64,000 nucleotides of DNA from a virus. The position numbers and the translations under genes were made by a program. Below, piece by piece: positions 9,657-44,930 of this stretch. Below the pieces are notes generated by a model, which was not told the DNA's origin, did no database searches, and saw only the letters and a program-made list of their open reading frames with translations. Location: positions 1-64,000 of the IMG/VR virus record IMGVR_UViG_3300017917_005124, one strand, 5' to 3'. Numbering within the stretch: position 1 is the stretch's first letter; every line of letters begins with the position of its first letter.

Positions 9657-12600
9657 ATGATAGATAAAAAAATGTTTGAATATACTAGGTGTGCAAAGGA
9701 CCCAGTATATTTTCTTAATAATTATGGTTTTGTATTTGATGCTAAAAAGAAAAAGGTAGACAAGATGACTTGTTTCCCTTATCAAGAATCGTGTGTACAA
9801 AAGTTTCATAAGGAACAAAATAATATAATACTTAAGTCAAGACAATGTCTTCCTGAAGATACTTTTGTTGATACTCCAGATGGGCCAAAACCAATTCAAG
9901 ATTTTAAAATTGGAGATTTTGTGTATTCTTATAATCTTGAAACAGGTCAAGTTGAAATGGATACAGTCGCTGACTCTTGGCTTAGTGGGGATAGACAATG
10001 TGTTAAATTAAAACTAAAAGATTCAAGAAATATTGAAGTTGGAGAGAATCATCCATTTTGGATTGTAAACAAACAGGCTTGGATAAAAGCTAAAGACCTT
10101 GATATTAATGATGAAATACTGGATGCTAATATAGGGTTTGGTGATGTGAATGTAAGTGATGAAGAAATAAAAATACTTGCCTATCTAATTACAGATGGGT
10201 GTACTAATAAGCAAGTAAAATTTACTAATAATAATATTGATTATCTATCTGAGTTTGAAGATAGTGTTAATATATGTTTCCCTGATTTAGAGATTAGAAA
10301 AAGTCCTAAATTAAATGGATATGATTATTATCCTCACCAAAAACATGGAGTAAGTACTTTAAATCCAATAATAGAGTGGTGTGAGAACAAGGGTATAGCT
10401 AATAAAAAGACAGAGTTTAAAAATTTACCAGAAGAAGTTTTTTATTGGGACAAAAATTCCGTATCTCTATTGGTTAATAGAATATTTGCTGGAGACGGAT
10501 GGATTTCTATTTTAAAAAAAACTGGAAATAAAAGATTAGAGCTGGGATTGGGCTCCCCATCACTCGTTTTTTTAGAACAAATTAAAATGTTGCTTAAAAA
10601 ATATAATATAAAAGGCAATATTTATGAAGTTAAAAATATGAAACTTCAGCAAAATAAATTTTATAAACTTAGAATAACTCACTCAAAAAGTGTATCTAAA
10701 TTTATAAATGAAATTGGAATTTATAAGAAAATAAATCAAGAACATCTTGATATTATAAATAATAGAGTTCATGATGTAAAAAACACATCTATTGTTAGAA
10801 AAATAGAGAAAACAGAAACCAAAAAGTGTTATGACATATCTGTTACAAAAAACGAAAATTTTTTAATTAATGGTTTGTTGGTTCACAATACTGGTCTCTC
10901 AGTTGTTACTGCTGGATATGTTGCGTGGAGGCTTATGTTTAGATATGATGAGAAAATACTTATCATTGCCAATGATGGAGCAGGAGCTGTTCGTTTTCTC
11001 GATACTGTTAAGCAATTTATTGAATATACACCAGATTGGATGAAACCAGATTCTGTTGAGACAGAAAATCAAAAGAAAATAATGTTTTCAAACAATTCTT
11101 ATGCTGAAGCTAAGGCATCAAGCCCTAATGCTGGTCGTGGAGATTCGCTTACAATGCTCATTCTTGATGAGACCGCCTTCATCAAGGATGCTGAGGCAAT
11201 TTGGATGGGCGCTGGTATGGCGCTTTCAGCTACTGGTGGTAAGTGTATAATGATTTCATGTGTGCCAGAGGGTACGATGGTATTTACTGATAATGGAATC
11301 AAAGAGATAGGTCAATTTGTTGATAAGAAAAAAAATGGTGGTTATGAAATAGATGAATATAGTGTATATGGAAAAGATAGGCTAAGGAAAGGTAATTTGT
11401 TTTTTAATAACGGTGAACATGATACAAAAATAATAACTACTACAAATTCAATATTTGAGGGAACATTTTCACATAAATTATGGGCATGTAAAAATGGGGT
11501 TTATGATTGGTACAAGACGGAGGAATTAGAGGTAGGTGATTATGTATCTGTACAATATGGCATGGAGTCTTGGGGTGGCAATGATTTTGTAATGGATTTT
11601 AAACCAACTATTAGTAATAAGATGTCAAATAAATTTAATCCTGATAGGATTACAAAAGAAATTTCTTATTTAATTGGATTGTATATTAGTGAAGGTTCTG
11701 TTTATAAAAAATATAATGAAAATAAAGAGTTTATAGGAGGCAGTGTTACGATTACATGTGGTGACGATATATCTAAAGCAATTAAAGATATTGGACTCTC
11801 ATACTCATGTCATGATGGATTACATTATTCAATAGGTTCAAAAAATTTAATTGAGTTTTTGGAATATATTGGTTTTGATTTATCTAAGAAGGCTAGAGAA
11901 AAAGAAATTCCAAAGAGGTTGTTTGAAATGTCTAGAGAGAATATAATTTATATGCTCAGGGGAATTTTTGATGGTGACGGATATTCAAGAAAAGATAAGG
12001 GATATATTGGTATTGGAATGAACTCAAAAAAATTAATACAACAACTAAGGATGTTGTTATTAAATTTTGGTATTTTAACTGATTATAGTGAGGTTTGGAC
12101 TAAAAAAACAAAAAAAGTTAACATAGAGACATTAAATTTTAGAATATCTGCAAATGCAGAGTTTTCTAAGATATTTTATGATAATATAGGTTTTAATTTT
12201 GATAGAAAGCAAAAAAATAAATTAATTTTGGAAAATTATAATTTAAAAAGAAATTCTCCAAATGATATAATACCATTCTCATTAAATTTAATTAAGAGAG
12301 TAATTAGTGAAAGTGGTCTTAAAATAAAAAATTTTAAGGATGCAGGCATATTTATTAATTCGATAGTAAATTCGAGATTAGAATATAAAACGCAACATGT
12401 AAGTAGAAAATTGTTTTTAAAAGTATTTGAAATTTGTAAAAATAAAATTTCAAATGAAACTATAGTTGAAGTAGAAAAGTGTTTATCATCAAATTTAATT
12501 TGGAATAAAATAAATAAGATAGAAAAGTCTAAAAAAGAAACTTATGATTTTTCTTTACCAAATAATGATGAAGATTTTTGGGCTCACTCTGTTATATATA

Positions 12601-15023
12601 ATGGTGTGTTAGGCCATCAAACGCCAAATGGTACTGGTAACCTGTACTACAAGACATGGGTTGATGCTGTAAATAATGATAACAAATTTAATGGCACAAT
12701 GGTTCATTGGACAGAGAATCCAAACAGTTCTGTTAATCTTGAATGGAAAATAAGCCCAACTGGAGAAAAAGTGCCTTGGAGCCCATGGTATGAGGACCAG
12801 TGTAAGAGGCTTAATTGGGACTCTGTTAAGATTGCTCAAGAGCTTGACCTGTCATTTGAAGGTTCCAAGAGGCTTGCTGTTGACCCAGAGCTTGTCACCA
12901 AGTATCATGCTAAAGTTATGGCTGATAGTAATGCTGAGGGGTATATGAGATTTGACTACATGGAGAAAGAAAATCCGACAGAGTTTGCAAAGATTGTTAC
13001 CGACATCACAAATATGACAATATTTAAGAGGCCAGAAGAGGGTAGGCAGTACATCATAGGATGTTTACCTCCTGATGAAAAAGTTTTGACAGATAGTGGA
13101 TTGATGAATATTCAAGATGTTACTGTTGATGATAAATTAGTTAGTGAGAATGGTGATTATGTTGATATAATTAATAAGCAAATATACCAAGTTATTGATG
13201 AGGATATATTTGAGATGAAAATGGATAACACTTTTAGAACAACAACATTTACAAAGGAGCATCCAATTTTAATTAGTAAACCAAATTTGAAAAGAAATTA
13301 CAACAAAAATCATAATAAGTATAGATTTAATGAAAGATATTGGGATTTTGATTTTAATTACACAAGAATGGAAGATGTTGAAATTGGTGACTGGATTAAA
13401 GTTCCTAATGTGTATAAAAAGGAAATAAAAAATATTTATAATGATAAATGGAAAATAAGCGAATCTGTTAGGTCTGATTTTGAGTTTGAATCACCATTGT
13501 TAGAAGATGACTTTTGGTGGTTTATTGGAATGTGGCTAGGAGATGGATGGTTAGGAAAAAATAATTATTCACATACAATATCAATATGTTTTGATAAAAA
13601 TCATGAGGGCTACATTGAAAAATGCGAAGATATTATTAAACGATTATTTAAGCGTTCTCCATCTTTTGTTGATAAAGGTAGTACATATGAATTAGTTTTT
13701 AATTCTAAATTTTTGTACTATTTTATATTAGAAAATTTCGGTCAATACTCACATGGAAAAAAAATACCAGAATGGGTTAAATTTATATCAAATGAATATA
13801 AAAAAGAATTGATTAGAGGTTATTTTGATAGTGATGGATGTTGGGTTAAGATAAATAAAAATGGAATTTTAAATTCAAAAGTAAGTTTTGTTAGTATTAA
13901 TCTGGAGTTGCTTGAATCAATACAAGATATTATTTTCTCTCTTGGTATTATTTCATCTCTAAGTAAGTTGCGAGATAAAAAAACGGCAATAACTCTTAAC
14001 AGAGAGTGTAAGCAAAAAGAAACATACAATTTAACATTATCAAATAATGATAGTTTAGAGTTGATAAATTTAATTTATAAACATGATGATATTAAGTTAA
14101 ATAAATTTAGTTTTAATGATTTTAATATTAAGAATAATAGAATTATTAGCTCTTGTCATTTTGATGAAGATAAACAATTTATTTATTTTAGAGTCAAAAA
14201 AATAAGTAAATCTAAATTTACTGGCAATGTTTATAATTTTGAGTGTGACACACACACATTTATGTGTCATCATATAACGACACATAATTGTGACGTTGCT
14301 AGAGGTGATGGACAGGATTACTCGACAATACAAGTTCTTGATGTTGATACGCTTGAGCAAGTTGCGGAATACAGAGAAAAAGTTTCTCCAGACCTTTTTC
14401 CTTTTGTGATTAATTATGTAGCAAGAATGTATAACATGGCCTATGTTGTAATAGAGGCCAATTCATTTGGTCTTGGTGTATGTTTTGATATAAGAGATAA
14501 ATTTAAATACCCAAGAAATAGATTATATTTTTCTAAGAATATAAAAGATATACATGTAAGGCATTATAGTTATAAGGTGAATGAGGGAACTGAAATTCCA
14601 GGATTCCAAACAACAAGAAAAACTAGAGTATTATTAATTAAGGCAATTATAGAACATATGAGAGAGGGTTCATTAATTTTGCATTCTAAGAAGTTGATGG
14701 CCGAATTTCAAACTTTTGTTATGAATGGAGATAAACCAGAACATGAGCCAGGATTTAATGATGACCTTATTCTCGCTCTTGGTCTTGCACTTTATATTAG
14801 AGACACTGAGTTTGAAAATGTAACATCAAGTACAGAAATGTATAAGAGCATGCTTAGTGCTATGATGCTTAATTCTAATTCTAGCTCTGGAAAATTACCA
14901 GACCCAAACAAAAAAATAGATTTACCAAAAGGTGGTGCTGGTTTGTATATTTTCAATGGTACAAATAACATGAATAATATAGAAAATTCAGACCCAGATG
15001 ATTTAAGTTGGCTTATGGGATAA
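9657..15023 (+). CDS. terL: Terminase large subunit (T4 gp17-like) with three cis inteins; about 577 aa after splicing
   Basis: Walker A LKSRQ|TGLS, Walker B LILDETAF, coupling motif IS|TPNG, nuclease IIG|CDVARG and NDDLILA; lies immediately upstream of the portal. Confidence 0.95.
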   Translation: MIDKKMFEYTRCAKDPVYFLNNYGFVFDAKKKKVDKMTCFPYQESCVQKFHKEQNNIILKSRQCLPEDTFVDTPDGPKPIQDFKIGDFVYSYNLETGQVEMDTVADSWLSGDRQCVKLKLKDSRNIEVGENHPFWIVNKQAWIKAKDLDINDEILDANIGFGDVNVSDEEIKILAYLITDGCTNKQVKFTNNNIDYLSEFEDSVNICFPDLEIRKSPKLNGYDYYPHQKHGVSTLNPIIEWCENKGIANKKTEFKNLPEEVFYWDKNSVSLLVNRIFAGDGWISILKKTGNKRLELGLGSPSLVFLEQIKMLLKKYNIKGNIYEVKNMKLQQNKFYKLRITHSKSVSKFINEIGIYKKINQEHLDIINNRVHDVKNTSIVRKIEKTETKKCYDISVTKNENFLINGLLVHNTGLSVVTAGYVAWRLMFRYDEKILIIANDGAGAVRFLDTVKQFIEYTPDWMKPDSVETENQKKIMFSNNSYAEAKASSPNAGRGDSLTMLILDETAFIKDAEAIWMGAGMALSATGGKCIMISCVPEGTMVFTDNGIKEIGQFVDKKKNGGYEIDEYSVYGKDRLRKGNLFFNNGEHDTKIITTTNSIFEGTFSHKLWACKNGVYDWYKTEELEVGDYVSVQYGMESWGGNDFVMDFKPTISNKMSNKFNPDRITKEISYLIGLYISEGSVYKKYNENKEFIGGSVTITCGDDISKAIKDIGLSYSCHDGLHYSIGSKNLIEFLEYIGFDLSKKAREKEIPKRLFEMSRENIIYMLRGIFDGDGYSRKDKGYIGIGMNSKKLIQQLRMLLLNFGILTDYSEVWTKKTKKVNIETLNFRISANAEFSKIFYDNIGFNFDRKQKNKLILENYNLKRNSPNDIIPFSLNLIKRVISESGLKIKNFKDAGIFINSIVNSRLEYKTQHVSRKLFLKVFEICKNKISNETIVEVEKCLSSNLIWNKINKIEKSKKETYDFSLPNNDEDFWAHSVIYNGVLGHQTPNGTGNLYYKTWVDAVNNDNKFNGTMVHWTENPNSSVNLEWKISPTGEKVPWSPWYEDQCKRLNWDSVKIAQELDLSFEGSKRLAVDPELVTKYHAKVMADSNAEGYMRFDYMEKENPTEFAKIVTDITNMTIFKRPEEGRQYIIGCLPPDEKVLTDSGLMNIQDVTVDDKLVSENGDYVDIINKQIYQVIDEDIFEMKMDNTFRTTTFTKEHPILISKPNLKRNYNKNHNKYRFNERYWDFDFNYTRMEDVEIGDWIKVPNVYKKEIKNIYNDKWKISESVRSDFEFESPLLEDDFWWFIGMWLGDGWLGKNNYSHTISICFDKNHEGYIEKCEDIIKRLFKRSPSFVDKGSTYELVFNSKFLYYFILENFGQYSHGKKIPEWVKFISNEYKKELIRGYFDSDGCWVKINKNGILNSKVSFVSINLELLESIQDIIFSLGIISSLSKLRDKKTAITLNRECKQKETYNLTLSNNDSLELINLIYKHDDIKLNKFSFNDFNIKNNRIISSCHFDEDKQFIYFRVKKISKSKFTGNVYNFECDTHTFMCHHITTHNCDVARGDGQDYSTIQVLDVDTLEQVAEYREKVSPDLFPFVINYVARMYNMAYVVIEANSFGLGVCFDIRDKFKYPRNRLYFSKNIKDIHVRHYSYKVNEGTEIPGFQTTRKTRVLLIKAIIEHMREGSLILHSKKLMAEFQTFVMNGDKPEHEPGFNDDLILALGLALYIRDTEFENVTSSTEMYKSMLSAMMLNSNSSSGKLPDPNKKIDLPKGGAGLYIFNGTNNMNNIENSDPDDLSWLMG
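9846..10889 (+). mobile_element. TerL intein 1 (348 aa, LAGLIDADG)
   Basis: CLPEDT...LLVHN|T with LAYLITDG and RIFAGDG motifs; inserted in Walker A. Confidence 0.93.
11259..12620 (+). mobile_element. TerL intein 2 (454 aa, LAGLIDADG, C-terminal Gln)
   Basis: CVPEGT...VLGHQ|T with IGLYISEG and LRGIFDGDG motifs. Confidence 0.92.
13062..14288 (+). mobile_element. TerL intein 3 (409 aa, LAGLIDADG)
   Basis: CLPPDE...ITTHN|C with IGMWLGDG and IRGYFDSDG motifs; next to the first nuclease Asp. Confidence 0.93.
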
Positions 15024-15081: not shown

Positions 15082-17124
15082 ATGGCAAATGAAGATAAAA
15101 ATGATTTAAGTATTTTTAGTGGTGTTAACAACGCCATTAATAAAAATAAGCGAAGAACACCTGTGGTTCAAAATCCTGGTGTTGTGCAAAATGTTGGAGA
15201 TGGATTGCGTCAGCGTCAAGGTAATAATATAGAACATGTTCAACAGCAATTCTTAGATTGGCAAGTCAATAAAATTGCTAATGACCTATATACTAGAACT
15301 ATATATTATGATACAGATAGGTTAGTTGCTTATGGTGATTTTAGAGCTATGGACCAATCTCCAGAGATTGCGGCAGCCTTAAATATAATGAGAGATGAAT
15401 GTATTACTAGGGGTGAGAAAGGTAAGATACTTGATATATTTTCAGAGAATTCTAGGGTTAAGACGGTTCTTGAAGATTTATTTTATAACAGATTAGATAT
15501 TGATTTTGCACTTAAGCTTTGGATTCGTGAGCTTCTTAAATATGGAGATTTATTTTTACAACTTCACATTGATAAGGAAGAAGGTATATATGGAGTAATG
15601 GCTTTGCCTTCTGATGAAATGCATAGAGAAGAGGGTTATGAGGGTAGGACTGATGATGTAAGGTTTAAGTGGGAGACTACTGGTGACATATTTGAAGATT
15701 GGCAAGTTGCTCACTTTAGATTGCTTGAGGATGTTAGAAAATTACCATATGGACGCTCTATACTAGACCCAGCTAGAAAACTTTGGAAACAACTTCAGCT
15801 TGCTGAAGATTCTATGTTGGTATACCGTATAACAAGAGCTCCAGAGAGGCGTGTTTTTTATATTGATGTAGGAAATCTTGAACATGCTGATGTATCTCAA
15901 TTTATTCAACAATTTCAAATTCAGCTCAAGAAACAGCCAATAGTTGACCAAAGAACAGGGAATATAAACTTGAAGTACAATCCAATGAATGTGACAGAGG
16001 ATTATTTTATTCCAATGAGGGCTGATAGGTCATCAAGAATCGAAACATTGCCAGGAGCTTCAAATCTTGGAGACATTCAAGATATTGAATATCTCCAAAA
16101 TAAATTATTCGCCTCACTTCAAGTTCCTAAGAATTACTTGAACTATGGGGAATCACTCCCAGGAGGCTCAACATTATCTCAGCAAGACCTTAGATTTGCT
16201 CGTACAATTAATACAATACAACAAGCAGTTCTTGCAGAGCTTAAGAGGATTGCAAATATTCATCTGTACTTTAATGGGTTTAAGGATGATATTGATAATT
16301 TTACATTAACACTTAACAATCCTTCTACACAACAGGAGTTACTTAAGCTTGAGACGATGAAGGCACGTCTTGAGGTATTTAAGGAAATGTTCTCTGCTGA
16401 AGCAACGTCACCAGTATCTTATGTATGGGCAATGGAAAATATTTTAGGATTTTCTAAGAGTGAGATTAAACTTATTCTTAAGCAGAAAAAGGTTGAAAAG
16501 AAAATTTTCGCTGAAATTGATTCTGCTGTTGAAATGTATAAGAAAATAGGATTATTTAGAGAACTTGATGATAAATATGAAATAGAAGGGGCTGAAGAAA
16601 TGATGATGGCTCAACAATCAGGAGAAGAAGCTGAAGGTGCTGGCGGAGATGTTGGTGGCGGAGGTGGAGGCCTTGGTGGAGCATTTGGAGGCGCTGGAGA
16701 ACTTGACCTAGGTGCAGATACTGGAGCTGAAGTAGGGGCTGAAGCAGGCGGTGCTGAACCTGAAGCAGGGGCTGAAGCAGCTCCAATAGCGGAGTATAAA
16801 TTTAGAAAAGTTCAAAATATTTCTGATAATTATGTAGAAAAAATGTTAAATGAATTACTTGGAAGTGATGAAAATAAATCTATCAAAAAAGTAGAAGACA
16901 ATGCTTTAATTAAAAGGAGTGAGTCAATGAATTTTGAATCTAAAAAATTAATTAGCAATATTAAAAATGGACTATCAAAAAGAGGTTTTAGGGAAACAAT
17001 ACAAGAGGGTTATTTTATCGAGACATCAAAAAATCCACTTGTAGATAACTCTGAAAAATTAAATAGTGATAACAATCAATTAATGAGTGAGATAGAAACT
17101 TATTTAAAAAATAGAAAAAAATAA
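15082..17124 (+). CDS. Portal protein (T4 gp20-like) with acidic Gly-rich linker and C-terminal extension
   Basis: LAEDSMLVYRITRAPERRVFYIDVGNL, EDYFIP, IETLPGASNLG. Confidence 0.93.
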   Translation: MANEDKNDLSIFSGVNNAINKNKRRTPVVQNPGVVQNVGDGLRQRQGNNIEHVQQQFLDWQVNKIANDLYTRTIYYDTDRLVAYGDFRAMDQSPEIAAALNIMRDECITRGEKGKILDIFSENSRVKTVLEDLFYNRLDIDFALKLWIRELLKYGDLFLQLHIDKEEGIYGVMALPSDEMHREEGYEGRTDDVRFKWETTGDIFEDWQVAHFRLLEDVRKLPYGRSILDPARKLWKQLQLAEDSMLVYRITRAPERRVFYIDVGNLEHADVSQFIQQFQIQLKKQPIVDQRTGNINLKYNPMNVTEDYFIPMRADRSSRIETLPGASNLGDIQDIEYLQNKLFASLQVPKNYLNYGESLPGGSTLSQQDLRFARTINTIQQAVLAELKRIANIHLYFNGFKDDIDNFTLTLNNPSTQQELLKLETMKARLEVFKEMFSAEATSPVSYVWAMENILGFSKSEIKLILKQKKVEKKIFAEIDSAVEMYKKIGLFRELDDKYEIEGAEEMMMAQQSGEEAEGAGGDVGGGGGGLGGAFGGAGELDLGADTGAEVGAEAGGAEPEAGAEAAPIAEYKFRKVQNISDNYVEKMLNELLGSDENKSIKKVEDNALIKRSESMNFESKKLISNIKNGLSKRGFRETIQEGYFIETSKNPLVDNSEKLNSDNNQLMSEIETYLKNRKK

Positions 17125-17125
17125 T

Positions 17126-17380
17126 ATGATTGAAAGACGATATTATGAAGCTTGGAATATAAATGACCACTATGAGATTAAACAAGAGGTTTTGCTTTTG
17201 CTTGATGAGCTTGAAAATTTTGATAAGAAGTTAAAAAAATTTTTAGGACCTAAAAAAGTAAAAGTAGCAGGTGCACATGCTAGAAAAAGTTGCAGGTCAA
17301 TGGAAAAAATATTAGAACAAATAAAGAAAAAAATTCAAATGACGAAGCAGGATTATGAGTCAGATTATGAAGATTATTAG
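17126..17380 (+). CDS. Histone H1-like (Hc1-family-like) small protein
   Basis: KVAGAHARKSCRSMEKIL resembles the KAAGxRARKxSxxLEKL signature of Hc1-type proteins. Confidence 0.55.
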   Translation: MIERRYYEAWNINDHYEIKQEVLLLLDELENFDKKLKKFLGPKKVKVAGAHARKSCRSMEKILEQIKKKIQMTKQDYESDYEDY

Positions 17381-17400
17381 ATATATATTTTTTTTATTTT

Positions 17401-17440
17401 AAAAAAGACTTTCATTAAATTTATGAAAGTCTTTTTTTTT
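17401..17440 (+). terminator. Intrinsic terminator
   Basis: AAAAAAGACTTTCAT-loop-ATGAAAGTC followed by a T run. Confidence 0.8.
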
Positions 17441-17473
17441 GTTTATAATTTGTTTTTAAATTAAAATTATTTT

Positions 17474-17507
17474 TTTGAAACAAATTTAATTATTTTAAGT
17501 ATATTTG
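17474..17507 (+). promoter_or_regulatory. Bacteroidota-type sigma promoter (-33 TTTG, -7 TAnnTTTG) upstream of dnaE
   Basis: TATATTTG at 17500-17507. The same -7 motif occurs at 44917, 49473, 50654, 52065, 58749 and 60314, mostly ahead of replication genes. Confidence 0.6.
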
Positions 17508-17545
17508 TATGTTGATTAATATCTATTTTAAAAATAATTCATAAA

Positions 17546-19651
17546 ATGTACATAGTATTTGATACTGAGACAACAGGCAAGGCAAAGAGTTTTAGTGCGC
17601 CTATAACTGATTTTAATAATTGGCCAAGGATGGTTCAAATTGCTTGGAAATTATTTGATAGAAATGGTGTTGAATTAGATTCTCAGAATTTAATAATTAA
17701 ACCTCAAGGATATATAATTCCTGATGAGGCAATAAAGATTCATAGAATCACAAACGAAAGAGCTAAGTCTGAAGGTGTTTTATTAAGAGTTGCTCTTGAG
17801 AAGTTTGGAGAAGCAATTAGAAATAGTAAATACTTAATTGCGCACAATATAACATTTGATGAAAATGTTGTTGGTTGTGAGCTTCTTAGAGAAGGTATGC
17901 ATAATTATATTCAAGATATTATGCATATTGATACAATGACACGTACAACTGAGTTTGTGGGAATTCCAAATAAAATGGGAAGAAGTGGATTTAAATATCC
18001 TTCTATGACTGAGCTTCATCATAAATTATTTGGCAAAGGCTTTGAAGATGCGCATGATGCACTTGCTGACGTTACAGCTCTTGCTAATTGTTTCTTTAAG
18101 TTACAAGAATTGGGTATTTTAGGATTTAAAGAAAATGATGATGACATTAGTTTAAGTTCACTTTCTGAGTTTGCTAAAGATAAAGCTTCTAGTGTTATAT
18201 TAAATAAAAATATACCATTTACAGCTCTTGGTGTACACACATTCCATTCAATACTTGAAGGCGCTGGCTCAGTTGATGAATATATAAAATTAGCTCAATC
18301 ATTAGGTCATACTTCTATGGCAATAACAGATAATTCAACTTTATCTGGAACATTTGAATTTTATAATAAATGTAAATCCAAAGGCATAAAGCCTGTGTTT
18401 GGTATAGAAATGTTATTAAATGATAATATTGGTATTTATTTTGATAATAAATCTTTTGAGGGAGATAATTTTAAAATTAAAATTTTTATAAAAGATGAGA
18501 AGGGTTATTGCAATTTAAATCACTTATTATATCTTGCAAATACAGAAGGATACTATAATAAGGAGGGTAGAATAAAAACTGAATGGCTCCTTAAGTATAA
18601 GGAGGGGCTATTGGTTTCTACATCTGGACTAGATAGTAAACTTGCAAGCATGGTTCTTAGAGGTAAAGAAAATGATGCTGAAAATTATGTTAATATGCTT
18701 AGGGCTGAATTCCAAGATGACCTCATAATAGAGCTAAAGTTCAGTAAATTTGCTAACCAAAAACAATACAATAATTTCTTGCTTAAGATGATGAGAAAGT
18801 ATAATATTATGCCAGTCTTGAGTAATGATACATATTACCCAACAAAAGATGATTCTATTTTGCAAGATGTTGTAACAGCTATTAAGCAGCATAGAACAAT
18901 TTCTTCCTGTTCTCTTAAGGAAAATAGAGAGCTTTGGTATTTTAGTAGCGATGATTTTAAAAATATTAACATAAAATATGGTTTTAATTACCCAGATGAA
19001 TTTATTGAATTATGTATGCAAAATACATTAAAGGTTGCAGATAAGTGTAATTTTAAATTTGATACTGGCTCTGAAAAATATCCTAGATATGAACCTACTG
19101 AAGATATTATAAAATATTTTGGCACCGATATCCCAGAAGAGATTATAAAAAAACTTTCATTTGCAAAGTTGAGGCAAAAAATTAAGAAGTACCAAGAGAA
19201 TGGTATTGTTGAAATGACGGATGAAAAAATTAAAGAGTATGTTGACCGTCTTAATTATGAGATTGAAGTTATTGAATCTAAGAAGATGCTTGACTACTTC
19301 CTTGTAAACTGGGAAATTATAAATTACTACAGAAAGCAAGGATTTTCCATTGGTCCTGCTAGGGGATGTTTTTTGCCTGGGAGTAGGGTTAAGATGGCTG
19401 ATGGCATGTATGCTCCAATAGATACAATTGAGATTGGAGATAGGGTGATTGATGCCTTTGGGGATGAGAGAGAAGTGATTGATACATTGGAATATGATAT
19501 TGATGAAGACATTATTGAGCTTGAGTTTGATGATGGAAGAATCATTGAGTGTACACTTGACCATGAGATTCTTACAGAGAATCGTGGATGGGTTCATGCA
19601 AAGGATTTGACAGAAGAAGATGAAATTGTTGATATAAATAAAGCAAGATGA
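17546..19651 (+). CDS. dnaE: DNA polymerase III alpha fragment 1: DEDDh exonuclease + PHP + split intein N-half 1
   Basis: FDTETTG, AHNITFD and HDALAD exonuclease motifs; PHP HTFHS and AITD; ...IGPARG then CFLPGS...CTLDH intein N-half. Confidence 0.93.
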   Translation: MYIVFDTETTGKAKSFSAPITDFNNWPRMVQIAWKLFDRNGVELDSQNLIIKPQGYIIPDEAIKIHRITNERAKSEGVLLRVALEKFGEAIRNSKYLIAHNITFDENVVGCELLREGMHNYIQDIMHIDTMTRTTEFVGIPNKMGRSGFKYPSMTELHHKLFGKGFEDAHDALADVTALANCFFKLQELGILGFKENDDDISLSSLSEFAKDKASSVILNKNIPFTALGVHTFHSILEGAGSVDEYIKLAQSLGHTSMAITDNSTLSGTFEFYNKCKSKGIKPVFGIEMLLNDNIGIYFDNKSFEGDNFKIKIFIKDEKGYCNLNHLLYLANTEGYYNKEGRIKTEWLLKYKEGLLVSTSGLDSKLASMVLRGKENDAENYVNMLRAEFQDDLIIELKFSKFANQKQYNNFLLKMMRKYNIMPVLSNDTYYPTKDDSILQDVVTAIKQHRTISSCSLKENRELWYFSSDDFKNINIKYGFNYPDEFIELCMQNTLKVADKCNFKFDTGSEKYPRYEPTEDIIKYFGTDIPEEIIKKLSFAKLRQKIKKYQENGIVEMTDEKIKEYVDRLNYEIEVIESKKMLDYFLVNWEIINYYRKQGFSIGPARGCFLPGSRVKMADGMYAPIDTIEIGDRVIDAFGDEREVIDTLEYDIDEDIIELEFDDGRIIECTLDHEILTENRGWVHAKDLTEEDEIVDINKAR
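19367..19648 (+). mobile_element. Split intein 1, N-half (94 aa, acidic)
   Basis: Cys1, block B CTLDH, then a stop; no C-terminal splicing block in frame. Confidence 0.9.
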
Positions 19652-20102
19652 AAGAAAGGGATTATAATCAAATAGATGCACTAAAATATTTGGTGGAAAC
19701 TGGACCTACGCATACAAATGAATGGACTGAAGCTGGTATGTATAATATATTGTCTAAAGTTATATTAGAAAGTGCGAGGAGATATAAAAAACAAGAGCTT
19801 GATAAATTAATCCAAGAAGCATCAAATTATTAAACAGGAAACACAAAACCTCAAGTAGGTCTAATTTTAGAAAATTGAGACTATATTTTATTTTAGATAA
19901 TAAATATTTAATTGAAGTTAAGGGTTATGGTCCGTGGGCAGATATAGCTAATATTAGCAAAAAAAATGAGGCTGCTAAGGTTTGGTGTAAAGAAAATAGT
20001 ATGAGATATAGACTTGTTGAGTTTAAAGATATTGGTAATCATTGGTATAAAAAGGCGAGAAATAAACATAAAGAATTAAATAATGGCGAAATTAAAGAGT
20101 AG
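19648..20102 (+). pseudogene. Decayed PD-(D/E)XK (TnsA-like) free-standing endonuclease
   Basis: Broken into two frames. FILDNKYLIEVKG...KKNEAAKVWCKEN aligns with FVVENKYMIECKP...KKEAAEKFCNTN of the 48342 gene, but the PD motif is missing. Confidence 0.65.
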
Positions 20103-20577
20103 AAAAATTAGAAAATATACAGGAAAAGTTCATGACTTAACTGTTGAAGAAACTCATTCATATAATATTGAGGGTTTAGGGGTTCATAATTCTGCTGCAG
20201 GAAGTTTGCTCTCTTGGTGTCTTGACATCACAAAGATTGACCCAATAAGATTTGACCTTTATTTTGAGCGTTTTCTTAATCCAGAGAGGAACTGCCTCAC
20301 ATCAAACTGTAATGTGATGCTTAAAGATGGCTCTTATAAAAATATTGTAGATGTTGAGGTTGGTGACCCTGTTCAGACTGAGCATGGACTTGGAACACTG
20401 GTTCAAAAGCATGAGAGAGAGCTTAGAGAAGATGAGAGTGTTTATGAGCTTGAAACTGAAGATGGAGCAAAGGTTCAGTTAACAGGTTGTCATATTGTTC
20501 CTGTGTTTAGAGAAGGTAAGAGAATAGAGGTTCGTGTTGATGAAATATTGGAGACCGACCAATTATTTGTATTTTAA
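20083..20577 (+). CDS. dnaE: DnaE fragment 2: IntC1 (36 aa) + 34-aa extein + IntN2 (94 aa)
   Basis: ...GLGVHN|[34 protein letters not shown]|CLTSNC...LTGCH; extein is 20191-20292. Confidence 0.93.
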
Positions 20578-20593
20578 AAAATTTAATTTGATT

Positions 20594-21288
20594 ATGAAAA
20601 AATATTTAGATATTAAGACTATTAAAGTTTCTAATTTAGTTGCTGAGTATATGATAAAGAAGTTTTTTCAAGAAAACTCTCCATCTCTTTTTAAGAAAGA
20701 GTTTGTAAAAATTTTTGAAATAGAAAAATTAATTAATGATTATCTGAGGCAAATTGATGAAGATGAAGTTAATTTATATATTAAAGAGCATAGAAAATTA
20801 GACTATAAATCAAGACCTTGTTTTGCTTTTATTTCTGATAATTTAACAAATCCACTTAGATTATATTTAGACCAACACACAGAAGGCGAAAGTGTTTGTG
20901 TTGATGATTTTTCCTTAGCAAGTGATTATTATACACAAGATTTAGAAACAAATAAGAATATAATGGATGTGAAATAGATAGAAGTGGTGTTTATGATTAT
21001 AAAAACAAAAAACTATATATTCCAGATTTTATTAATAGAAAGTTAAAGATTTTTATTGAGTTTAACGGTGATTATTGGCATTGTAATCCATGTATATTTA
21101 AAAAAGAATATTATAATACAGTTAAAAAAATGACTGCTGAAGAAATTTGGAATAAAGATAAATTTAGAAACGAAAGAATTAAGAAATTGACTGGATGTTG
21201 TTATTTGGTTGTTTGGGAAAATGATTGGAATAAAAACAAAGAAGAGGTTAAACAGATTTTAATAAAATTTTTAAATGAAAAAAAATAA
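20594..21288 (+). pseudogene. Frameshifted Vsr/EDxHD-like free-standing endonuclease
   Basis: ORF 20594-20977 plus a startless -1 frame 20956-21288 reading YIPDFINRKLKIFIEFNGDYWHCNP...VVWENDW. Confidence 0.8.
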
Positions 21289-22882
21289 AATAAAATCAAT
21301 AAAAAAAATTGATTATAAAGGAGTAGTTTACGACCTTTCTTTTAATAAAGATAATTTATTTTTTACTTCAAGTAATACTTTAAGTGAAGGTACTCAACTA
21401 TCTGTTTTAGTGCACAATAGCTCACCAGATATTGATATTGACTTTATGACTGGAACTGATGATATTACAAATAACTTTTTATATGAGAAATATGGAAGAG
21501 AGCGTGTGATGTCTGTTGGAACATTTGGAACATTTTCTGAGAAGAATACTATTAAGGATGTTGTTAGAGCATATCAAGGAAAGGATGCTACTGGATTTGG
21601 TTCAGATGTATTTGCGTTAACTGAGGAGATGCCAGACTTCCTTAAGTACAACGATACACTTGAGCACTGGTTCGAGACATGGCCAGATAATCCAGAATGT
21701 AGTCCTAGAGTTAGAAACTGGATTAAAGACCCTAAGAATAAAGAAATAATAGAAGTTGCACTTAAGCTTCAAGGTAATATAAGAGGTGTGGGTCAACATG
21801 CTGCTGGTATAGTAATTACTCCGAGTGAGTCTTGGAACTATGTTCCTACTAATATAATCGCATCAAACGAAAATATTGTTACAGCATTTCAAGAGGCTGA
21901 TAAATCTGGAAAAGACCTTAGTGCTCTTGGGATTTTAAAATTAGACAGACTTAAATTAGAAACTCTAAATGTAATCAAGGAGGCTATTGAGATTGTAAAG
22001 AAAAATAAGGGTATAGATATATCTGATAAAGTTGACTACGTTGACCTTGAGGATGAAAATTTATTCATTGAGCTTAGACTTGGGCTTAACCATGGTATAT
22101 TTCAGTTTGAGAGTAGTGGTATGAATAACTTAATAAGAGGAATGCAGGTTGAGAAGTTTGAAGAGCTTGTTGCATGTAATGCGCTCTATAGACCAGGTCC
22201 AATGGGAATTGGTGCCCACGAGGAGTTTATCACAAATAAATTTAATCCTGAAAAAATTAAATTGGTCCACCCAGCTCTTGAGCCAATTCTTAGAGAGACA
22301 AATGGAGTACTTGTATTTCAGGAGCAACTAATGTTTATTGCTGATAGAATTGGTGGAATGGGTCTTGGTAAGGGTGATAACCTTAGAAGATACATGGATA
22401 AGGCGAGTAAGATTATTGCTCGACACTCTGCAGGAGAAAAGCTTACTGAAGAAGAGTTAAACAATAGCAACTGGAAAGGGTTTCAACAATATTGGAATAT
22501 GTTCCTTGAGGGAGCTGCTGCTCAAGGGTATGATACTGCGGAGGTCGATAAAATTAAGGATTGGGTAATCCAATATCTTGGATATTCATTCAATAAGTGC
22601 TTAACAGAAAATCATAAAGTAATTTCTGAGGATAGAGGCGAGATTAACATTCTTGATGTGAAGATTGGAGAGAAAGTTCTTGGATATAATCCCGAAACTG
22701 GCGAGGATGAGTTTAATCAAGTTAAGGATATTCATCATAATGGCAGGAAAAAGGTTTACAGGATTAAAACGAAGTCTGGAAAAATATTAGAATGTACTGA
22801 AGACCATAAGATTATGACAGAAAGTGGGATGAAAACTTTAAAGGAGGTTAGAGAAAATAAATTAAAAATCAAAATTGTATGA
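21275..22882 (+). CDS. dnaE: DnaE fragment 3: IntC2 (48 aa) + catalytic palm/fingers (393 aa) + IntN3 (94 aa)
   Basis: VLVHN|SSPDIDIDF, GQHAAGIVI, LKLDRL, GIFQFES, ALYRPGPM, GYSFNK|CLTENH...CTEDH. Confidence 0.95.
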   Translation: MKKNKIKSIKKIDYKGVVYDLSFNKDNLFFTSSNTLSEGTQLSVLVHNSSPDIDIDFMTGTDDITNNFLYEKYGRERVMSVGTFGTFSEKNTIKDVVRAYQGKDATGFGSDVFALTEEMPDFLKYNDTLEHWFETWPDNPECSPRVRNWIKDPKNKEIIEVALKLQGNIRGVGQHAAGIVITPSESWNYVPTNIIASNENIVTAFQEADKSGKDLSALGILKLDRLKLETLNVIKEAIEIVKKNKGIDISDKVDYVDLEDENLFIELRLGLNHGIFQFESSGMNNLIRGMQVEKFEELVACNALYRPGPMGIGAHEEFITNKFNPEKIKLVHPALEPILRETNGVLVFQEQLMFIADRIGGMGLGKGDNLRRYMDKASKIIARHSAGEKLTEEELNNSNWKGFQQYWNMFLEGAAAQGYDTAEVDKIKDWVIQYLGYSFNKCLTENHKVISEDRGEINILDVKIGEKVLGYNPETGEDEFNQVKDIHHNGRKKVYRIKTKSGKILECTEDHKIMTESGMKTLKEVRENKLKIKIV

Positions 22883-23366
22883 TACAAATTGGAGTTATAT
22901 GTATTTCTACTCCTATTATAGATAATGATTATAACTTATCTATAAAATGGAACATTTGAATAAGATACCAGAACATGTGTTTTCTGGAATTAATAAAGAA
23001 GGTTTTTTAAAATATGTTGAGGATGTATTTATAAAAATAGAAAATTTAGATGAAATACATATTCCAGCTGCAATTTCATTTTTGAAGATTAAGTTTTTAA
23101 ATGGAAATATTGATTTTGAATCAGGCGCATTGATGATAAAAAGTCAATGTAAAAAGTAAGTTTTAATAAATCTCATACTACGCAATCCAAAAACTCGTCA
23201 TGCAACACCTAAAAGTGATATGCAGAAAAATAATTTGGAGAGAGATGAAAGAAAGCGTAATTTTGTAAAAGAAAATTTAGAATACGAACTCATTGAAGTA
23301 TGGGAAAATGATATAATTAATAATATTGAAAAAGTAAAAATATGCTTGAACAATTTGAAGAAATAG
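22879..23366 (+). pseudogene. Decayed Vsr-like endonuclease remnant
   Basis: Short ORF from ATG 22879, then ORF 22947-23159, then past its stop in the same frame NPKTR...RDERK...YELIEVWENDI, the C-terminal Vsr-like motifs; the catalytic core is absent. Confidence 0.65.
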
Positions 23367-24430
23367 TTGAATTTGAAGAAATAGGTGAAGTAGAAACTTA
23401 TGACCTTGAAATAGAATCTAAACATCATAATTTTTATGCTAATGGAATTTGTGTGTCTAATAGTCACTCACTTTCCTATTCATATCTTGCAATGCAAACG
23501 CTTTATTTAAAGCACTATTACCCTACAGAATTTTACACAGCTCTTCTAAATCACCCAAAATCTGGAACTAAGGAAAAGCAACAAGCGTGGATTGCGTCTG
23601 CGATTTCATCAGCAATGTCTAAGGGAATTATAATCAAGAGACCATCTAGAAAGTCAGGATGGGAGTGGACAATGACAGGAGACCATGAAATATCAATGGG
23701 GTTCTCTGGAATCAATGGATTGGGTACTATAGCTTATGAGGAAATGCTTCAACTTATAGATGAAATTCCAGTAGAAAATGGTCAACCTAAGAAGACTCTT
23801 GAGACTGTAAATATGAGTACATTTATGAGACTGCCGTTTAGTAAATTCAATAAAGGTGCGTTTACATCTTGTGTTAAGGCTGGTGTCTTTGATGACTGGA
23901 GCGAGTCAAGAGAGCAATTGCTTGCAATTAAGCAGAAAAAGAAAAAGAAAGTAATAGCAAACCAAGGTGTATTATTTGATATGAATGACTCTTCTTTTGA
24001 TATACCTATGCAAAAAGATGATGTTAATTATCCACCTACTTCTGATTTAACAAAGAGGTCTGAATTTATTGATGTATGTAATTTTGACCTTGAAAAAATA
24101 AAATATATTCTTGATATTAAGAGTGATGTAAATAATAGAGCTAAGAGAGAAAAGCCAGTTGATACTATAATTAATTTTGATGAAAATGATTACTATATTT
24201 TTGTTGTTGAGACATTTAGGCTTATGCAAAGTAAATCTGGAAAACAATATTTAACTATGAAAGTTGGCGATGGAATTAGTCATACTACAATTAGAGCATT
24301 TGAGCCAACTGTAAATGACCTCTTACCTATTTTGGTTACAAATGGTATTTATGTTGGTGAGTTTGAAAAAAATGACAAGGGGTATATCAATTTTAAGAGA
24401 GGAACCAGAATAGTAAGAGTTGATAAATAA
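23342..24430 (+). CDS. dnaE: DnaE fragment 4: IntC3 (40 aa, acidic) + C-terminal 322 aa
   Basis: YDLEI...NFYANGICVSN|SHSLSYSYLAMQTLYLKHYYPTEFYTALLN; HhH-like GFSGINGLG; OB-like C-terminus. Confidence 0.93.
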   Translation: MLEQFEEIVEFEEIGEVETYDLEIESKHHNFYANGICVSNSHSLSYSYLAMQTLYLKHYYPTEFYTALLNHPKSGTKEKQQAWIASAISSAMSKGIIIKRPSRKSGWEWTMTGDHEISMGFSGINGLGTIAYEEMLQLIDEIPVENGQPKKTLETVNMSTFMRLPFSKFNKGAFTSCVKAGVFDDWSESREQLLAIKQKKKKKVIANQGVLFDMNDSSFDIPMQKDDVNYPPTSDLTKRSEFIDVCNFDLEKIKYILDIKSDVNNRAKREKPVDTIINFDENDYYIFVVETFRLMQSKSGKQYLTMKVGDGISHTTIRAFEPTVNDLLPILVTNGIYVGEFEKNDKGYINFKRGTRIVRVDK

Positions 24431-24468
24431 ATTATATAGTTTGCTTGTTAAAAAATATATAAATAAAA

Positions 24469-24960
24469 ATGATTAACATATACACAGACGGAGCCTGCAA
24501 GGAAAATTCAAGGGATAATGGAACTCCAAGTGGATTAGGTGGTTGGGCATATGTAATTCTTGACCAGGAGCCAGGAAGAAATATGGAAATTGCACTCTCT
24601 GATTCAGACTTTGTAGATGGAACTACAAACCAGGAAATGGAAATAGTTGCTGTAGCAAAGGCTTTTGAGGCACTTGTCGGATATAAGATTGATGATAAGG
24701 TGATTTTATACTCAGATAGTGCCTATGTGATAAATTGCTTCAAGGATAGATGGTACGACAAGTGGAATTCCAACGGTTGGCTAAATAGTAAGGGAAATCC
24801 AGTAGAAAATCGTGAATCTTGGGAAATAGCGATAGATTTAGTCAATAGATTTGACGTAACTTTTTTTCATATTAAGAGAAACTCAACAAAATATATTTCA
24901 ATGGTCGATGAAATGGCGAAGAAGGCTTCTAAGAAACAAACCAGCCAAGAATCGTTATAG
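24469..24960 (+). CDS. rnhA: Ribonuclease HI
   Basis: IYTDGAC, TTNQEMEI, YSDSAYV, W...GW...VEN, VDEMAK. Confidence 0.9.
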   Translation: MINIYTDGACKENSRDNGTPSGLGGWAYVILDQEPGRNMEIALSDSDFVDGTTNQEMEIVAVAKAFEALVGYKIDDKVILYSDSAYVINCFKDRWYDKWNSNGWLNSKGNPVENRESWEIAIDLVNRFDVTFFHIKRNSTKYISMVDEMAKKASKKQTSQESL

Positions 24961-25339
24961 CAGTACTAAATAGTATAGAAAGTATTGCCACTACAGTCTT
25001 AGCTTTTATTTTAAAAGTCTTCAAGTCTTCTATTTCAATTCTATCTTTAATTTTTTCTTCTCTTATACTTTTAAGCTCACTTTCAAGTGTTTTTATTTCT
25101 TCGTTTGAAATCTTTATATCTTGAAGCGCCTTTTTCATATCTCTAAGGTCATCTGGATTTACAACTTTTTCTAAGTTCTCTTTCCAAATTTTTATATCTT
25201 GAAGAGCGTGTTTCATTCCGCCTATTCGAGTCATTTCAAGATTTGTCTCATGAAGAGAAGATGCGAGGTTGTCAATTTTATCTTCCATTTTTTGAAGTTG
25301 TTGCAAAATTAACACATTGTTGTTTTCGTTTCCTGTCAT
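24929..25339 (-). CDS. Coiled-coil protein with C-terminal transmembrane helix (possibly holin-related)
   Basis: Heptad-rich body followed by VVAILSILFSTAITILGWFVS. Confidence 0.5.
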   Translation of the reverse strand: MTGNENNNVLILQQLQKMEDKIDNLASSLHETNLEMTRIGGMKHALQDIKIWKENLEKVVNPDDLRDMKKALQDIKISNEEIKTLESELKSIREEKIKDRIEIEDLKTFKIKAKTVVAILSILFSTAITILGWFVS

Positions 25340-25468
25340 GATATTTTTGTTTAATAATTTAAAATAAACCTCTTTATAATATATATATTAGTTTTTTAAA
25401 AAAACATAATTTTTATGTTATAAAAACTCTTTTTATTTAATATTTATTTAAAAAGATATTGTATAAGT

Positions 25469-26296
25469 ATGAAAAAGCACTTAATAGAAGAATCACTAAA
25501 GAAAATGAAAAATATTGTTGAAGCAAGGATTAATGAAGCTCCAACACAACAGGCTTCAGCACAACAGGCTCCAACACAACAGGCTCCAGCACAGCAGGCT
25601 CCAGCACAACAAGCTCCAGCGCAGCAAGCTCCAGCACAGCAAGACCCGCAAAGAGACCAAAAAATAGCTAAAAATATTGATGTCACAATGGACCAAGCTA
25701 TGAATACAGTAGTTGCAAAATTACCTAGTATATTAGCTAATTTTGCAAAAACAAGTGGAGATAAAGACGGTTCTATTGATGCACCTGGTGTATACGACAA
25801 CAATCAAGTACAACAGCCACAGACGCAGGCACAACAGCCACAAGCAATAAAGGAGGGTGTTGTTTCTGAGATAACATTTGATGAAAGTAAGTTTATGCAA
25901 TGTGTGGATGGTGGTCTTAATGAAGGTGGAATACTTGGTTTAGCTATGTCGGCTCCAGCTATTTTAAAATATGGTGGTCAAGCTTCTAAGTGGATTGGTA
26001 AGAAAATGGATTCTCAATGGCTTCAGAAGTGGGGAAATAAAACTGCAGAGGCTGGTGAAAAACTTCATCATAAATATATTCACACAATAGAAAAGGTTTT
26101 AAAGCCACTTATGCCAAATGCAACTCCAGAACAATTACATAAGGCCGCAAATGGTGTATTCTTAGGTGCTGTTGGTGTTCTTTTTGCAGGGAGTCTAGCA
26201 CATCCAGGTATGTTAACTGGAATAAAGGGTGCAGAGCTTGGTCAAGAGGCTATTGCAGCACTTCAAAAATCTTTACCTTCTCTTGGGTTTGCGTAA
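25469..26296 (+). CDS. Hypothetical virion-associated protein with Gln/Ala/Pro repeats
   Basis: 275 aa, (APAQQ)n repeats, hydrophobic C-terminal half, preceded by TATTTATT. Confidence 0.6.
   Translation: MKKHLIEESLKKMKNIVEARINEAPTQQASAQQAPTQQAPAQQAPAQQAPAQQAPAQQDPQRDQKIAKNIDVTMDQAMNTVVAKLPSILANFAKTSGDKDGSIDAPGVYDNNQVQQPQTQAQQPQAIKEGVVSEITFDESKFMQCVDGGLNEGGILGLAMSAPAILKYGGQASKWIGKKMDSQWLQKWGNKTAEAGEKLHHKYIHTIEKVLKPLMPNATPEQLHKAANGVFLGAVGVLFAGSLAHPGMLTGIKGAELGQEAIAALQKSLPSLGFA
25538..25642 (+). repeat. 15-nt coding tandem repeat, 7 copies (APxQQ)
   Basis: GCTCCAGCACAACAG-like units. Confidence 0.9.
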
Positions 26297-26763
26297 TGGC
26301 AAAGAAAAATACATATAGAAGTCTTCTAAGGAAAGCGGTTTGTAAGGCTAAATTTGCAGCTAATCCAGCTGCATCAAAGGCTAAAAAAAAGAAGAGACTT
26401 GAAAGTTCTGCTAAGAAGATGTCTAATAAGATGACTAATCCAGAAAAAATATTTTCTGAGATGATGATTGAATTGGATGTTGAATTTGAGTCTCAAAAAA
26501 TTATTGATAATAAAATTTTTGATTTTTATATACCTTCTAAAAATTTAATAGTAGAGGTTCATGGTGATTATTGGCATAGCAATCCATTAATATACGAAGG
26601 TAAGGAGCTGAATAAGATACAAGTAAGAAATCAAAAAAATGATTTATTTAAAGAAACTCTAGCTAAGGGCATGGGATTTGATATTGAGGTGGTTTGGGAA
26701 TATGACCTTAAAAATAATTATAATGAACAAATAGAAAGGTTTAAAAAAATTTTAAAAAAATGA
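26296..26763 (+). CDS. Vsr/DUF559-like endonuclease, apparently intact
   Basis: MTNPE...FDFYIPSKNLIVEVHGDYWHSNP...VVWEYDL with a basic N-terminus. Confidence 0.8.
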   Translation: MAKKNTYRSLLRKAVCKAKFAANPAASKAKKKKRLESSAKKMSNKMTNPEKIFSEMMIELDVEFESQKIIDNKIFDFYIPSKNLIVEVHGDYWHSNPLIYEGKELNKIQVRNQKNDLFKETLAKGMGFDIEVVWEYDLKNNYNEQIERFKKILKK

Positions 26764-44884: not shown

Positions 44885-44930
44885 TATATTTTAGTAGCTT
44901 AATTAATTTTTTTTATTATATTTGCAATAT

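Follow-up and report, generated by a model that had tools for sequence, protein, structure and literature searches.

A DnaE-type polymerase gene of an uncultured phage, probably fractured three times and joined through three split inteins

How can a single DnaE-type DNA polymerase arise from a gene that is divided among four separate open reading frames (ORFs)? The question is raised by a large uncultured phage known from IMG/VR virus record IMGVR_UViG_3300017917_005124, which is 95,437 bp long and has an estimated completeness of ~38% and a G+C content near 30%; the window analyzed here is its first 64 kb. Four ORFs on the + strand (17546-19651, 20083-20577, 21275-22882 and 23342-24430) encode polypeptides of 701, 164, 535 and 362 amino acids (aa), each of which carries one piece of the polymerase (an extein) together with one or two intein halves. 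Extein 1 is followed by the N-terminal half of a first intein (IntN1); the second ORF consists of the C-terminal half of that intein (IntC1), extein 2 and IntN2; the third of IntC2, extein 3 and IntN3; and the fourth of IntC3 and extein 4. In a Pfam search of the whole record, DNA_pol3_alpha is matched only by pieces 1, 2 and 3, which cover consecutive parts of that profile (Table 1). When the junctions are cut before the Cys of each IntN and after the terminal Asn of each IntC, the exteins add up to 1356 aa, and the four DnaE pieces of 607, 34, 393 and 322 aa proposed in a first-pass annotation of the DNA, together with the order of the intein halves between them, are reproduced in both coordinates and length. 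Genes of this general layout were defined from GOS reads as 'fractured genes' (Dassa et al. 2009; PMC2677866). We put at roughly 85% the probability that the locus is a triple fractured gene for a DnaE-type polymerase, the pieces of which would be joined via three split inteins.

The positions of the breaks can be read from relatives of the polymerase, drawn from IMG/VR and from metagenome contigs, that lack inteins at all three sites. In six of these (L002, L003, L004, L006, L007 and L009), the exteins of which are 67-93% identical to those of the window, and in about 60 additional loci, all distinct, the four segments lie in one frame and 0 nucleotides (nt) apart. Extein 1 ends at the exact point where these alleles run on into extein 2, and extein 3 is likewise contiguous with extein 4. 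Because the exteins abut in this way, the three junctions are fixed exactly, and the earlier claim that conserved motifs are restored upon removal of the inteins is borne out: the L002 allele continues uninterrupted across all three points (GPARG/SAAGS, NPERN/SPPDIDIDF and SFNK/SHS, with a slash at the junction). Site 2 is located directly 5' of the codons for the catalytic Asp pair. The smallest middle extein to be donated, the 34 residues of piece 2, is 91-100% identical among relatives. The same four-piece gene is also present on an independent 33.5-kb metagenome contig (JACCEA011321704.1, hereafter L104), with exteins 86-97% identical to those of the window.

The sequences at the ends of the pieces resemble inteins in each residue expected to take part in splicing. 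Each IntN has Cys as its first residue (Cys1) and a TxxH block (block B), each IntC has a conserved Met start, and IntC1, IntC2 and IntC3 end in HN, HN and SN, respectively, with Ser at the +1 position in all three. These features, already pointed out in the first-pass annotation, are conserved in the distinct homologues of IntN and IntC, which number 16 and 18 at site 1, 13 and 12 at site 2, and 9 and 5 at site 3. Cys1 is kept in 16/16 IntN1, 13/13 IntN2 and 9/9 IntN3 homologues, and TxxH is conserved at the three sites with a lone exception at site 3 (L037, I for T in block B). All 16 IntN1 homologues thus combine Cys1 with TxxH, and all 18 IntC1 homologues end in HN. In the site 2 alignments, Cys1 and the T and H of block B are invariant in IntN2, as are Met1, YD and HN in IntC2, and the Ser-Asn end of intein 3 is constant in every split and contiguous allele. 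Hint and intein models in Pfam match the ends of the DnaE pieces; in a search of the halves against intein profiles, a check that the first-pass annotation had proposed, Intein_splicing scored above its cut-off in pieces 2 and 3 and below it in pieces 1 and 4. The locus therefore has what is expected of class-1 inteins (Cys1, TxxH, a terminal Asn followed by Ser at +1, HINT-fold homology in sequence and precise in-frame insertion) and of naturally split ones (halves in separate ORFs, each in frame with its extein, with a conserved stop and start).

These are three different inteins, given that the halves of one are 23-33% identical to the corresponding halves of the others and that their best solved relatives differ. 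Those relatives were found with contiguous alleles of each site. The site 1 allele matches NrdJ-1 and the Mtu RecA mini-intein (E 4.5e-8), that of site 2 the Mja KlbA (MJ0781) intein (E 4.5e-6), and that of site 3 gp41-1 and DnaE inteins, Npu DnaE included (E 1e-9). The contiguous alleles are cis mini-inteins of 134 aa at site 1 (L117, 6022-6423), 146 aa at site 2 (L099, 813-1250) and 131-133 aa at site 3 (L045, 9828-10220; L077; L155), in which a short linker replaces the stop, the endonuclease gene and the Met of the split forms. They represent direct intermediate stages in the emergence of the split forms.

From these parts, a route to a complete polymerase can be proposed. A DnaE-type gene (exonuclease-PHP-Pol III alpha) would have been invaded by three unrelated mini-inteins at conserved palm and finger sites, and each mini-intein would then have been broken by a free-standing homing endonuclease gene, with four ORFs on one strand as the outcome. 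The four polypeptides would be translated separately, each IntN would pair with its own IntC to fold into a HINT domain, and class-1 splicing in trans (thioester formation at Cys1, attack by Ser+1 and cyclization of Asn) would produce the 1356-aa polymerase and freed intein halves, the three reactions being mutually independent. Deletions in this genome have truncated all three endonuclease genes, and the phage would be left reliant on three trans-splicing reactions. We consider it fairly probable that this dependence is permanent, and that three concurrent trans-splicing reactions, without cross-reaction, turn four polypeptides into one 1356-aa polymerase.

Both the trans-splicing and the absence of cross-reaction between the pairs are deduced from the sequence of the locus, and this leaves some room for a model in which the four chains assemble non-covalently and the intein halves act as docking 'clasps' that never splice. 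Such a model is improbable. Every catalytic residue is present (Cys1, TxxH, the terminal Asn and Ser+1), and the same residues are conserved across homologues, including the contiguous alleles, which must splice for the enzyme to work. Moreover, unless the intein were excised, there would hardly be room near the active site for a palm segment of 34 aa with 130 aa of intein around it.

Evolutionary rates speak to another possibility. Comparison of the window with L104, its closest relative of the same layout, gives ratios of nonsynonymous to synonymous substitution rates (dN/dS) of 0.035-0.095 in the four exteins and of 0.04-0.21 in the six intein halves; the synonymous divergence (dS) is 0.4-1.6. 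Purifying selection on the intein halves equals that on the polymerase in strength, and ratios this low at such dS values imply that the split gene and its inteins stayed functional over considerable divergence. (For the endonuclease remnants dN/dS is 0.03-0.34, which is uninformative because the stretches are short and the partner genes in L104 are intact.) It is thus very unlikely that the locus is a decaying pseudogene with dispensable pieces, replication being left to a family-A polymerase or a host enzyme. A gene with a family-A DNA polymerase domain is indeed present (44922-46553, + strand, 543 aa, with a TTG start as listed), and decay is evident in the endonuclease genes of the gaps, but the frames of all four exteins and all six intein halves are intact, deletions occur only in the endonuclease genes, and the rates quoted above represent long-term purifying selection in the split state. 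That errors of sequencing or assembly, or RNA introns, account for the breaks in a gene that is really continuous can be set aside almost entirely, because the stops are corroborated by the recurrence of identical split points, with stops and Met starts, in many independent assemblies and data sources, because the DNA between the exteins carries intein halves that are in frame and evolve under purifying selection, and because the gaps of 431-697 nt contain endonuclease remnants homologous to intact genes elsewhere. In a search of 17000-25000 for introns of groups I and II, no Rfam family was matched at E<=1.

Of the original proposal that four genes require three split inteins to make one DnaE, the arrangement itself is upheld by the intein-free alleles, the splicing residues, the selection and L104, while the splicing is something we infer. 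Three observations weigh against our reading. First, intein 3 has Ser rather than His before its terminal Asn, a conserved substitution with which it would still have to splice, as the contiguous alleles must. Second, the record is ~38% complete and encodes a family-A polymerase, beside which DnaE may be neither the only replicase nor strictly needed; the description of the enzyme as essential, applied to a phage gene in a window that also has a family-A polymerase gene, is not supported. Third, IntN1 and IntN2 are both acidic and IntC1 and IntC2 both basic, so that charge alone leaves cross-pairing between pairs 1 and 2 possible.

Net charges of the N- and C-halves are -19/+3 for pair 1, -10/+4 for pair 2 and +2/-10 for pair 3, and hence opposite in sign within every pair. 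Pair 3 is thus charge-reversed relative to the acidic-N/basic-C pairs 1 and 2, which would have to rely on contacts other than charge for discrimination from each other. In their layout, IntC-extein-IntN, pieces 2 and 3 resemble laboratory constructs for peptide cyclization. As these middle pieces carry halves of two different inteins, cyclization should not occur, and since a piece whose own halves cross-reacted would be lost, selection should act against such reactions. With 23-33% identity between the halves and the reversed charge polarity of pair 3, mutual orthogonality of the three pairs is plausible. The reactions had also been described as ordered, but the sequence of the locus shows no sign of any splicing order and implies none.

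The stretches between the intein halves show how the gene may have come to be broken. In the window, the distances from IntN stop to IntC start are 431, 697 and 459 nt; in L104 they are 1643, 1478 and 1534 nt and accommodate intact endonuclease genes for proteins of 344 aa (with a PD-(D/E)xK-like C-terminus), 363 aa and 312 aa, the last two Vsr-like; all three genes overlap the start of the IntC ORF that follows. An endonuclease gene between the halves and on the same strand, as in fractured genes, is thus intact in L104, as it is in L005, and is represented in the window by truncated remnants (Table 1). Fractured genes are characterized by endonucleases of GIY-YIG or Vsr-like type, the 3' ends of whose genes reach into the IntC ORF. 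At site 1, the remnant is 85% identical to its L104 counterpart and overlaps the IntC1 start by 20 nt; a weak Pfam match to TnsA makes PD-(D/E)xK/TnsA-like enzymes the candidate family. At site 2, the remnant retains a Vsr-like core that is 45% identical to residues 281-360 of the 373-aa gene product of L005, and overlaps the IntC2 start by 14 nt. At site 3, a Vsr-like tail and the IntC3 start overlap by 25 nt. Aligned with the DNA of L104, the window shows a clean 838-nt deletion in endonuclease 1 (at window 19884/19885) and a clean 775-nt deletion in endonuclease 3 (at window 23180/23182), each of which took the start codon together with the first ~250-270 residues of the protein. Dassa et al. 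(2009; PMC2677866) proposed a cycle that leads from a mini-intein through endonuclease invasion to endonuclease loss, and the decay observed here is the endonuclease-loss stage of that model. With their endonuclease genes truncated, the cassettes would no longer be able to home.

Table 1. Positions in the window of the exteins, intein halves and intervening ORFs of the DnaE locus
Feature	Positions	Strand	Evidence and remarks
Extein 1, 607 aa: DnaQ-like exonuclease, PHP, first part of Pol III alpha palm	17546..19366	+	Pfam RNase_T, PHP, DNA_pol3_alpha 2-66
IntN1, 94 aa + stop, N-half of split intein 1	19367..19651	+	Cys1, TxxH; net charge -19
Small ORF g1a, 61 aa, no known family, without L104 counterpart	19648..19833	+	ORF list, Pfam, DNA comparison
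Homing endonuclease 1 remnant: last ~70 aa of a 275-344-aa PD-(D/E)xK-like protein	19875..20102	+	tblastn against full-length genes of L017, L023, L104
IntC1, 36 aa, C-half of split intein 1	20083..20190	+	HN before Ser at end; basic N-terminus
Extein 2, 34 aa, Pol III alpha palm segment	20191..20292	+	Pfam DNA_pol3_alpha 66-99
IntN2, 94 aa + stop, N-half of split intein 2	20293..20577	+	Pfam Intein_splicing 37 bits, above cut-off
ORF g2a, 127 aa from ATG, without counterpart in L104 or L005	20594..20977	+	ORF list, Pfam
Vsr-like homing endonuclease 2 remnant: open nuclease core, first start codon not before 21130	20998..21288	+	Translation
IntC2, 48 aa, C-half of split intein 2	21275..21418	+	HN before Ser; blocks F-G separated by variable loop
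Extein 3, 393 aa: catalytic Asp pair, remaining palm, finger domain	21419..22597	+	Pfam DNA_pol3_alpha 99-259, DNA_pol3_finger
IntN3, 94 aa + stop, N-half of split intein 3, basic	22598..22882	+	Pfam Intein_splicing 37.5 bits
Small conserved ORF g3a, 70 aa	22947..23159	+	63% identity to L025 and L104 ORFs at same site
Vsr-like homing endonuclease 3 remnant: last 48 aa of a 312-aa protein	23220..23366	+	98% identity to L104 C-terminus
IntC3, 40 aa, C-half of split intein 3, acidic	23342..23461	+	SN before Ser at end
Extein 4, 322 aa + stop, C-terminal part with HhH motif	23462..24430	+	Pfam HHH_6 23.3 against cut-off 25.6 bits

The three inteins were initially regarded as a co-evolved set, a view that the relatives do not bear out, since each cassette is found alone or in other combinations and the cassettes outlast the similarity of the host gene. 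Site 2 alone is split in L001, L005 and others, with the 373-aa Vsr-like gene. Site 1 alone is split in L049 and L112, and in L015/L016, where 124 nt separate the halves and no endonuclease is present. Splits occur at sites 2 and 3 in L037 and L038, at sites 1 and 3 in L014/L025 and L119, and at sites 1 and 2, as far as the contig end, in L017 and L103, while L117 has a contiguous intein at site 1 and a split at site 3; the sample of relatives is biased by the queries, and the counts of these combinations are not frequencies. The 164-aa IntC1-extein 2-IntN2 protein has about 20 full-length relatives (as protein clusters) in JGI, ENA and Logan, at 39-95% identity. In L014-L016, IntN1 and IntC1 are 89% and 86% identical to those of the window, compared with 47% for extein 1 and 38% for extein 4. 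Similarly, IntN3 of L025 is 76% identical (extein 3, 58%) and IntN2 of L032 is 82% identical (exteins, 40-57%). Cassettes that are more alike than their host genes, in free combinations of sites, point to separate horizontal homing events. The locus is thus the union of three invasions by independently mobile elements and not a co-evolved set.

Distant DnaE homologues, at 20-30% identity, have further large insertions within the extein 3 region, at positions other than those of the window (about 10142-12706 in L018-L020, 9762-11864 in L022 and 3621-8283 in L024). These are probably further inteins or fractures at other sites.

The closest described systems are the fractured genes of Dassa et al. 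(2009; PMC2677866), among which are three DnaE loci with three different insertion points, one of them (DnaE-1) with an extra in-frame C-intein part. The layout is the same: an N-extein with IntN, a free-standing endonuclease gene (Vsr-like ones among them) and an IntC with C-extein follow one another on one strand, the 3' end of the endonuclease gene overlaps the IntC start, the origin is phage and the host gene is DnaE. The likeness to the GOS loci DnaE-1, DnaE-2 and DnaE-3 is one of layout and host gene. Those loci are short read assemblies, each with a single fracture 'in two', whereas the gene described here is complete and has three fractures, four ORFs, two IntC-extein-IntN middle pieces and endonuclease genes that are all truncated. 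It is the known fractured-gene class multiplied, and not a new mechanism.

Cyanobacterial DnaE provides a second point of comparison. The Ssp and Npu DnaE inteins are likewise natural split class-1 inteins in Pol III alpha, with a roughly 100/36 split. Site 3 is located in the same conserved finger motif as the cyanobacterial intein, and the contiguous site 3 allele matches 7qil, a solved chain named 'DnaE intein' (E 8e-9). However, cyanobacterial DnaE inteins precede a Cys-Phe-Asn extein (PMC3585056), whereas site 3 follows S-F-N-K, which by motif alignment would place it four residues downstream of the cyanobacterial site. The cyanobacterial halves are encoded at distant loci and those described here are adjacent (459 nt apart at site 3), Ser replaces Cys at +1, and there are three inteins rather than one. 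Intein 3, which follows FNK, has Ser+1 and has halves 459 nt apart, thus falls outside the cyanobacterial DnaE split-intein family. The phage-derived inteins gp41-1, NrdJ-1 and IMPDH-1, from fractured genes, are also small and naturally split and also have Ser+1; their halves are charge-complementary, a pattern that the opposite net charges within the pairs of the window would match. Among solved inteins, gp41-1 matches intein 3 best (E 1e-9), and NrdJ-1 is among the matches of intein 1. They differ in host gene, are distant in sequence and occur as a single split per gene.

A literature search for natural genes with two, three or multiple split inteins found engineered systems only. Engineered tandem trans-splicing (for example Pinto et al. 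2020; PMC7090010) uses pairs that do not cross-react to ligate several polypeptides in a one-pot reaction, and SICLOPPS-type constructs have the IntC-cargo-IntN layout of the middle pieces. Both are laboratory designs, whereas the locus in the window is a natural arrangement kept by selection in a phage genome.

Expression signals at the locus are sparse. A promoter and terminator scan of the cluster remained at background level, with no terminator-like site inside the cluster on the + strand. The single + strand terminator-like site, at 17401-17437, lies upstream of the first piece, a position consistent with a single transcript. Five folds were examined for hairpins upstream of the endonuclease genes, of the kind described in 2009, and none exceeded shuffled sequences (best z -1.9). 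The phage genes lack Shine-Dalgarno sequences, their leaders are A/T-rich, and the three IntC start contexts resemble those of the other genes. A TATTTAT-like box recurs in leaders throughout the window (for example at 17516-17545 and 20053-20082). With the portal proteins of Flavobacterium phage immuto and Microcystis phage Mel-JY01, that of the present phage shares 39-41% identity, and this similarity, together with leaders that lack Shine-Dalgarno sequences, would fit a Bacteroidota-type host.

Inteins and endonucleases also occur elsewhere in the record. The large terminase ORF (9657-15023, + strand, 1788 aa) has Intein_splicing and PT-HINT matches and three LAGLIDADG_3 stretches; it apparently holds three contiguous inteins, the middle one of which, by eye, seems to end in HQ rather than HN. 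NrdA, the large subunit of class I ribonucleotide reductase (53423-57097, + strand, 1224 aa), contains a Hint/LAGLIDADG intein at about residues 284-640. A free-standing gene for a Vsr/DUF559-like endonuclease of 155 aa (26296-26763, + strand) lies outside any intein or visible host gene. Beyond the window, at about 69281-73501 of the record (L179, 782-5002), is a second fractured gene, for a ClpC-like ATPase broken in its Walker A region. Its intein is atypically split, into an N-half of 30 aa and a C-half of ~143 aa that ends in HN before Thr, and an intact gene for a 524-aa Vsr-like endonuclease is located between the two. Downstream of the DnaE locus, the ORF at 25469-26296 (+ strand) has an (A/P)-Q-Q-A-P repeat tract near its N-terminus, and the opposite strand is open at 25444-25803 (- strand) as a Cys/Ala/Gly-rich repeat ORF, which is probably a composition artefact.

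The window and its relatives together contain the empty site, the contiguous mini-intein, the split form with an intact endonuclease, the form with a truncated endonuclease and the form with none. This population-level series, at three sites of one gene, documents the gene-breaking model of 2009. It also shows that, through selfish elements, a replication gene of a phage can become fixed in four pieces. If the three pairs do splice side by side without cross-reaction, natural selection would have produced an orthogonal set of small split inteins, each with Cys1 and Ser+1, that works on a large multi-domain enzyme and could serve for ligating proteins from multiple fragments. The trio, in which two pairs are acidic-N/basic-C and one is charge-reversed, would then be ready-made.

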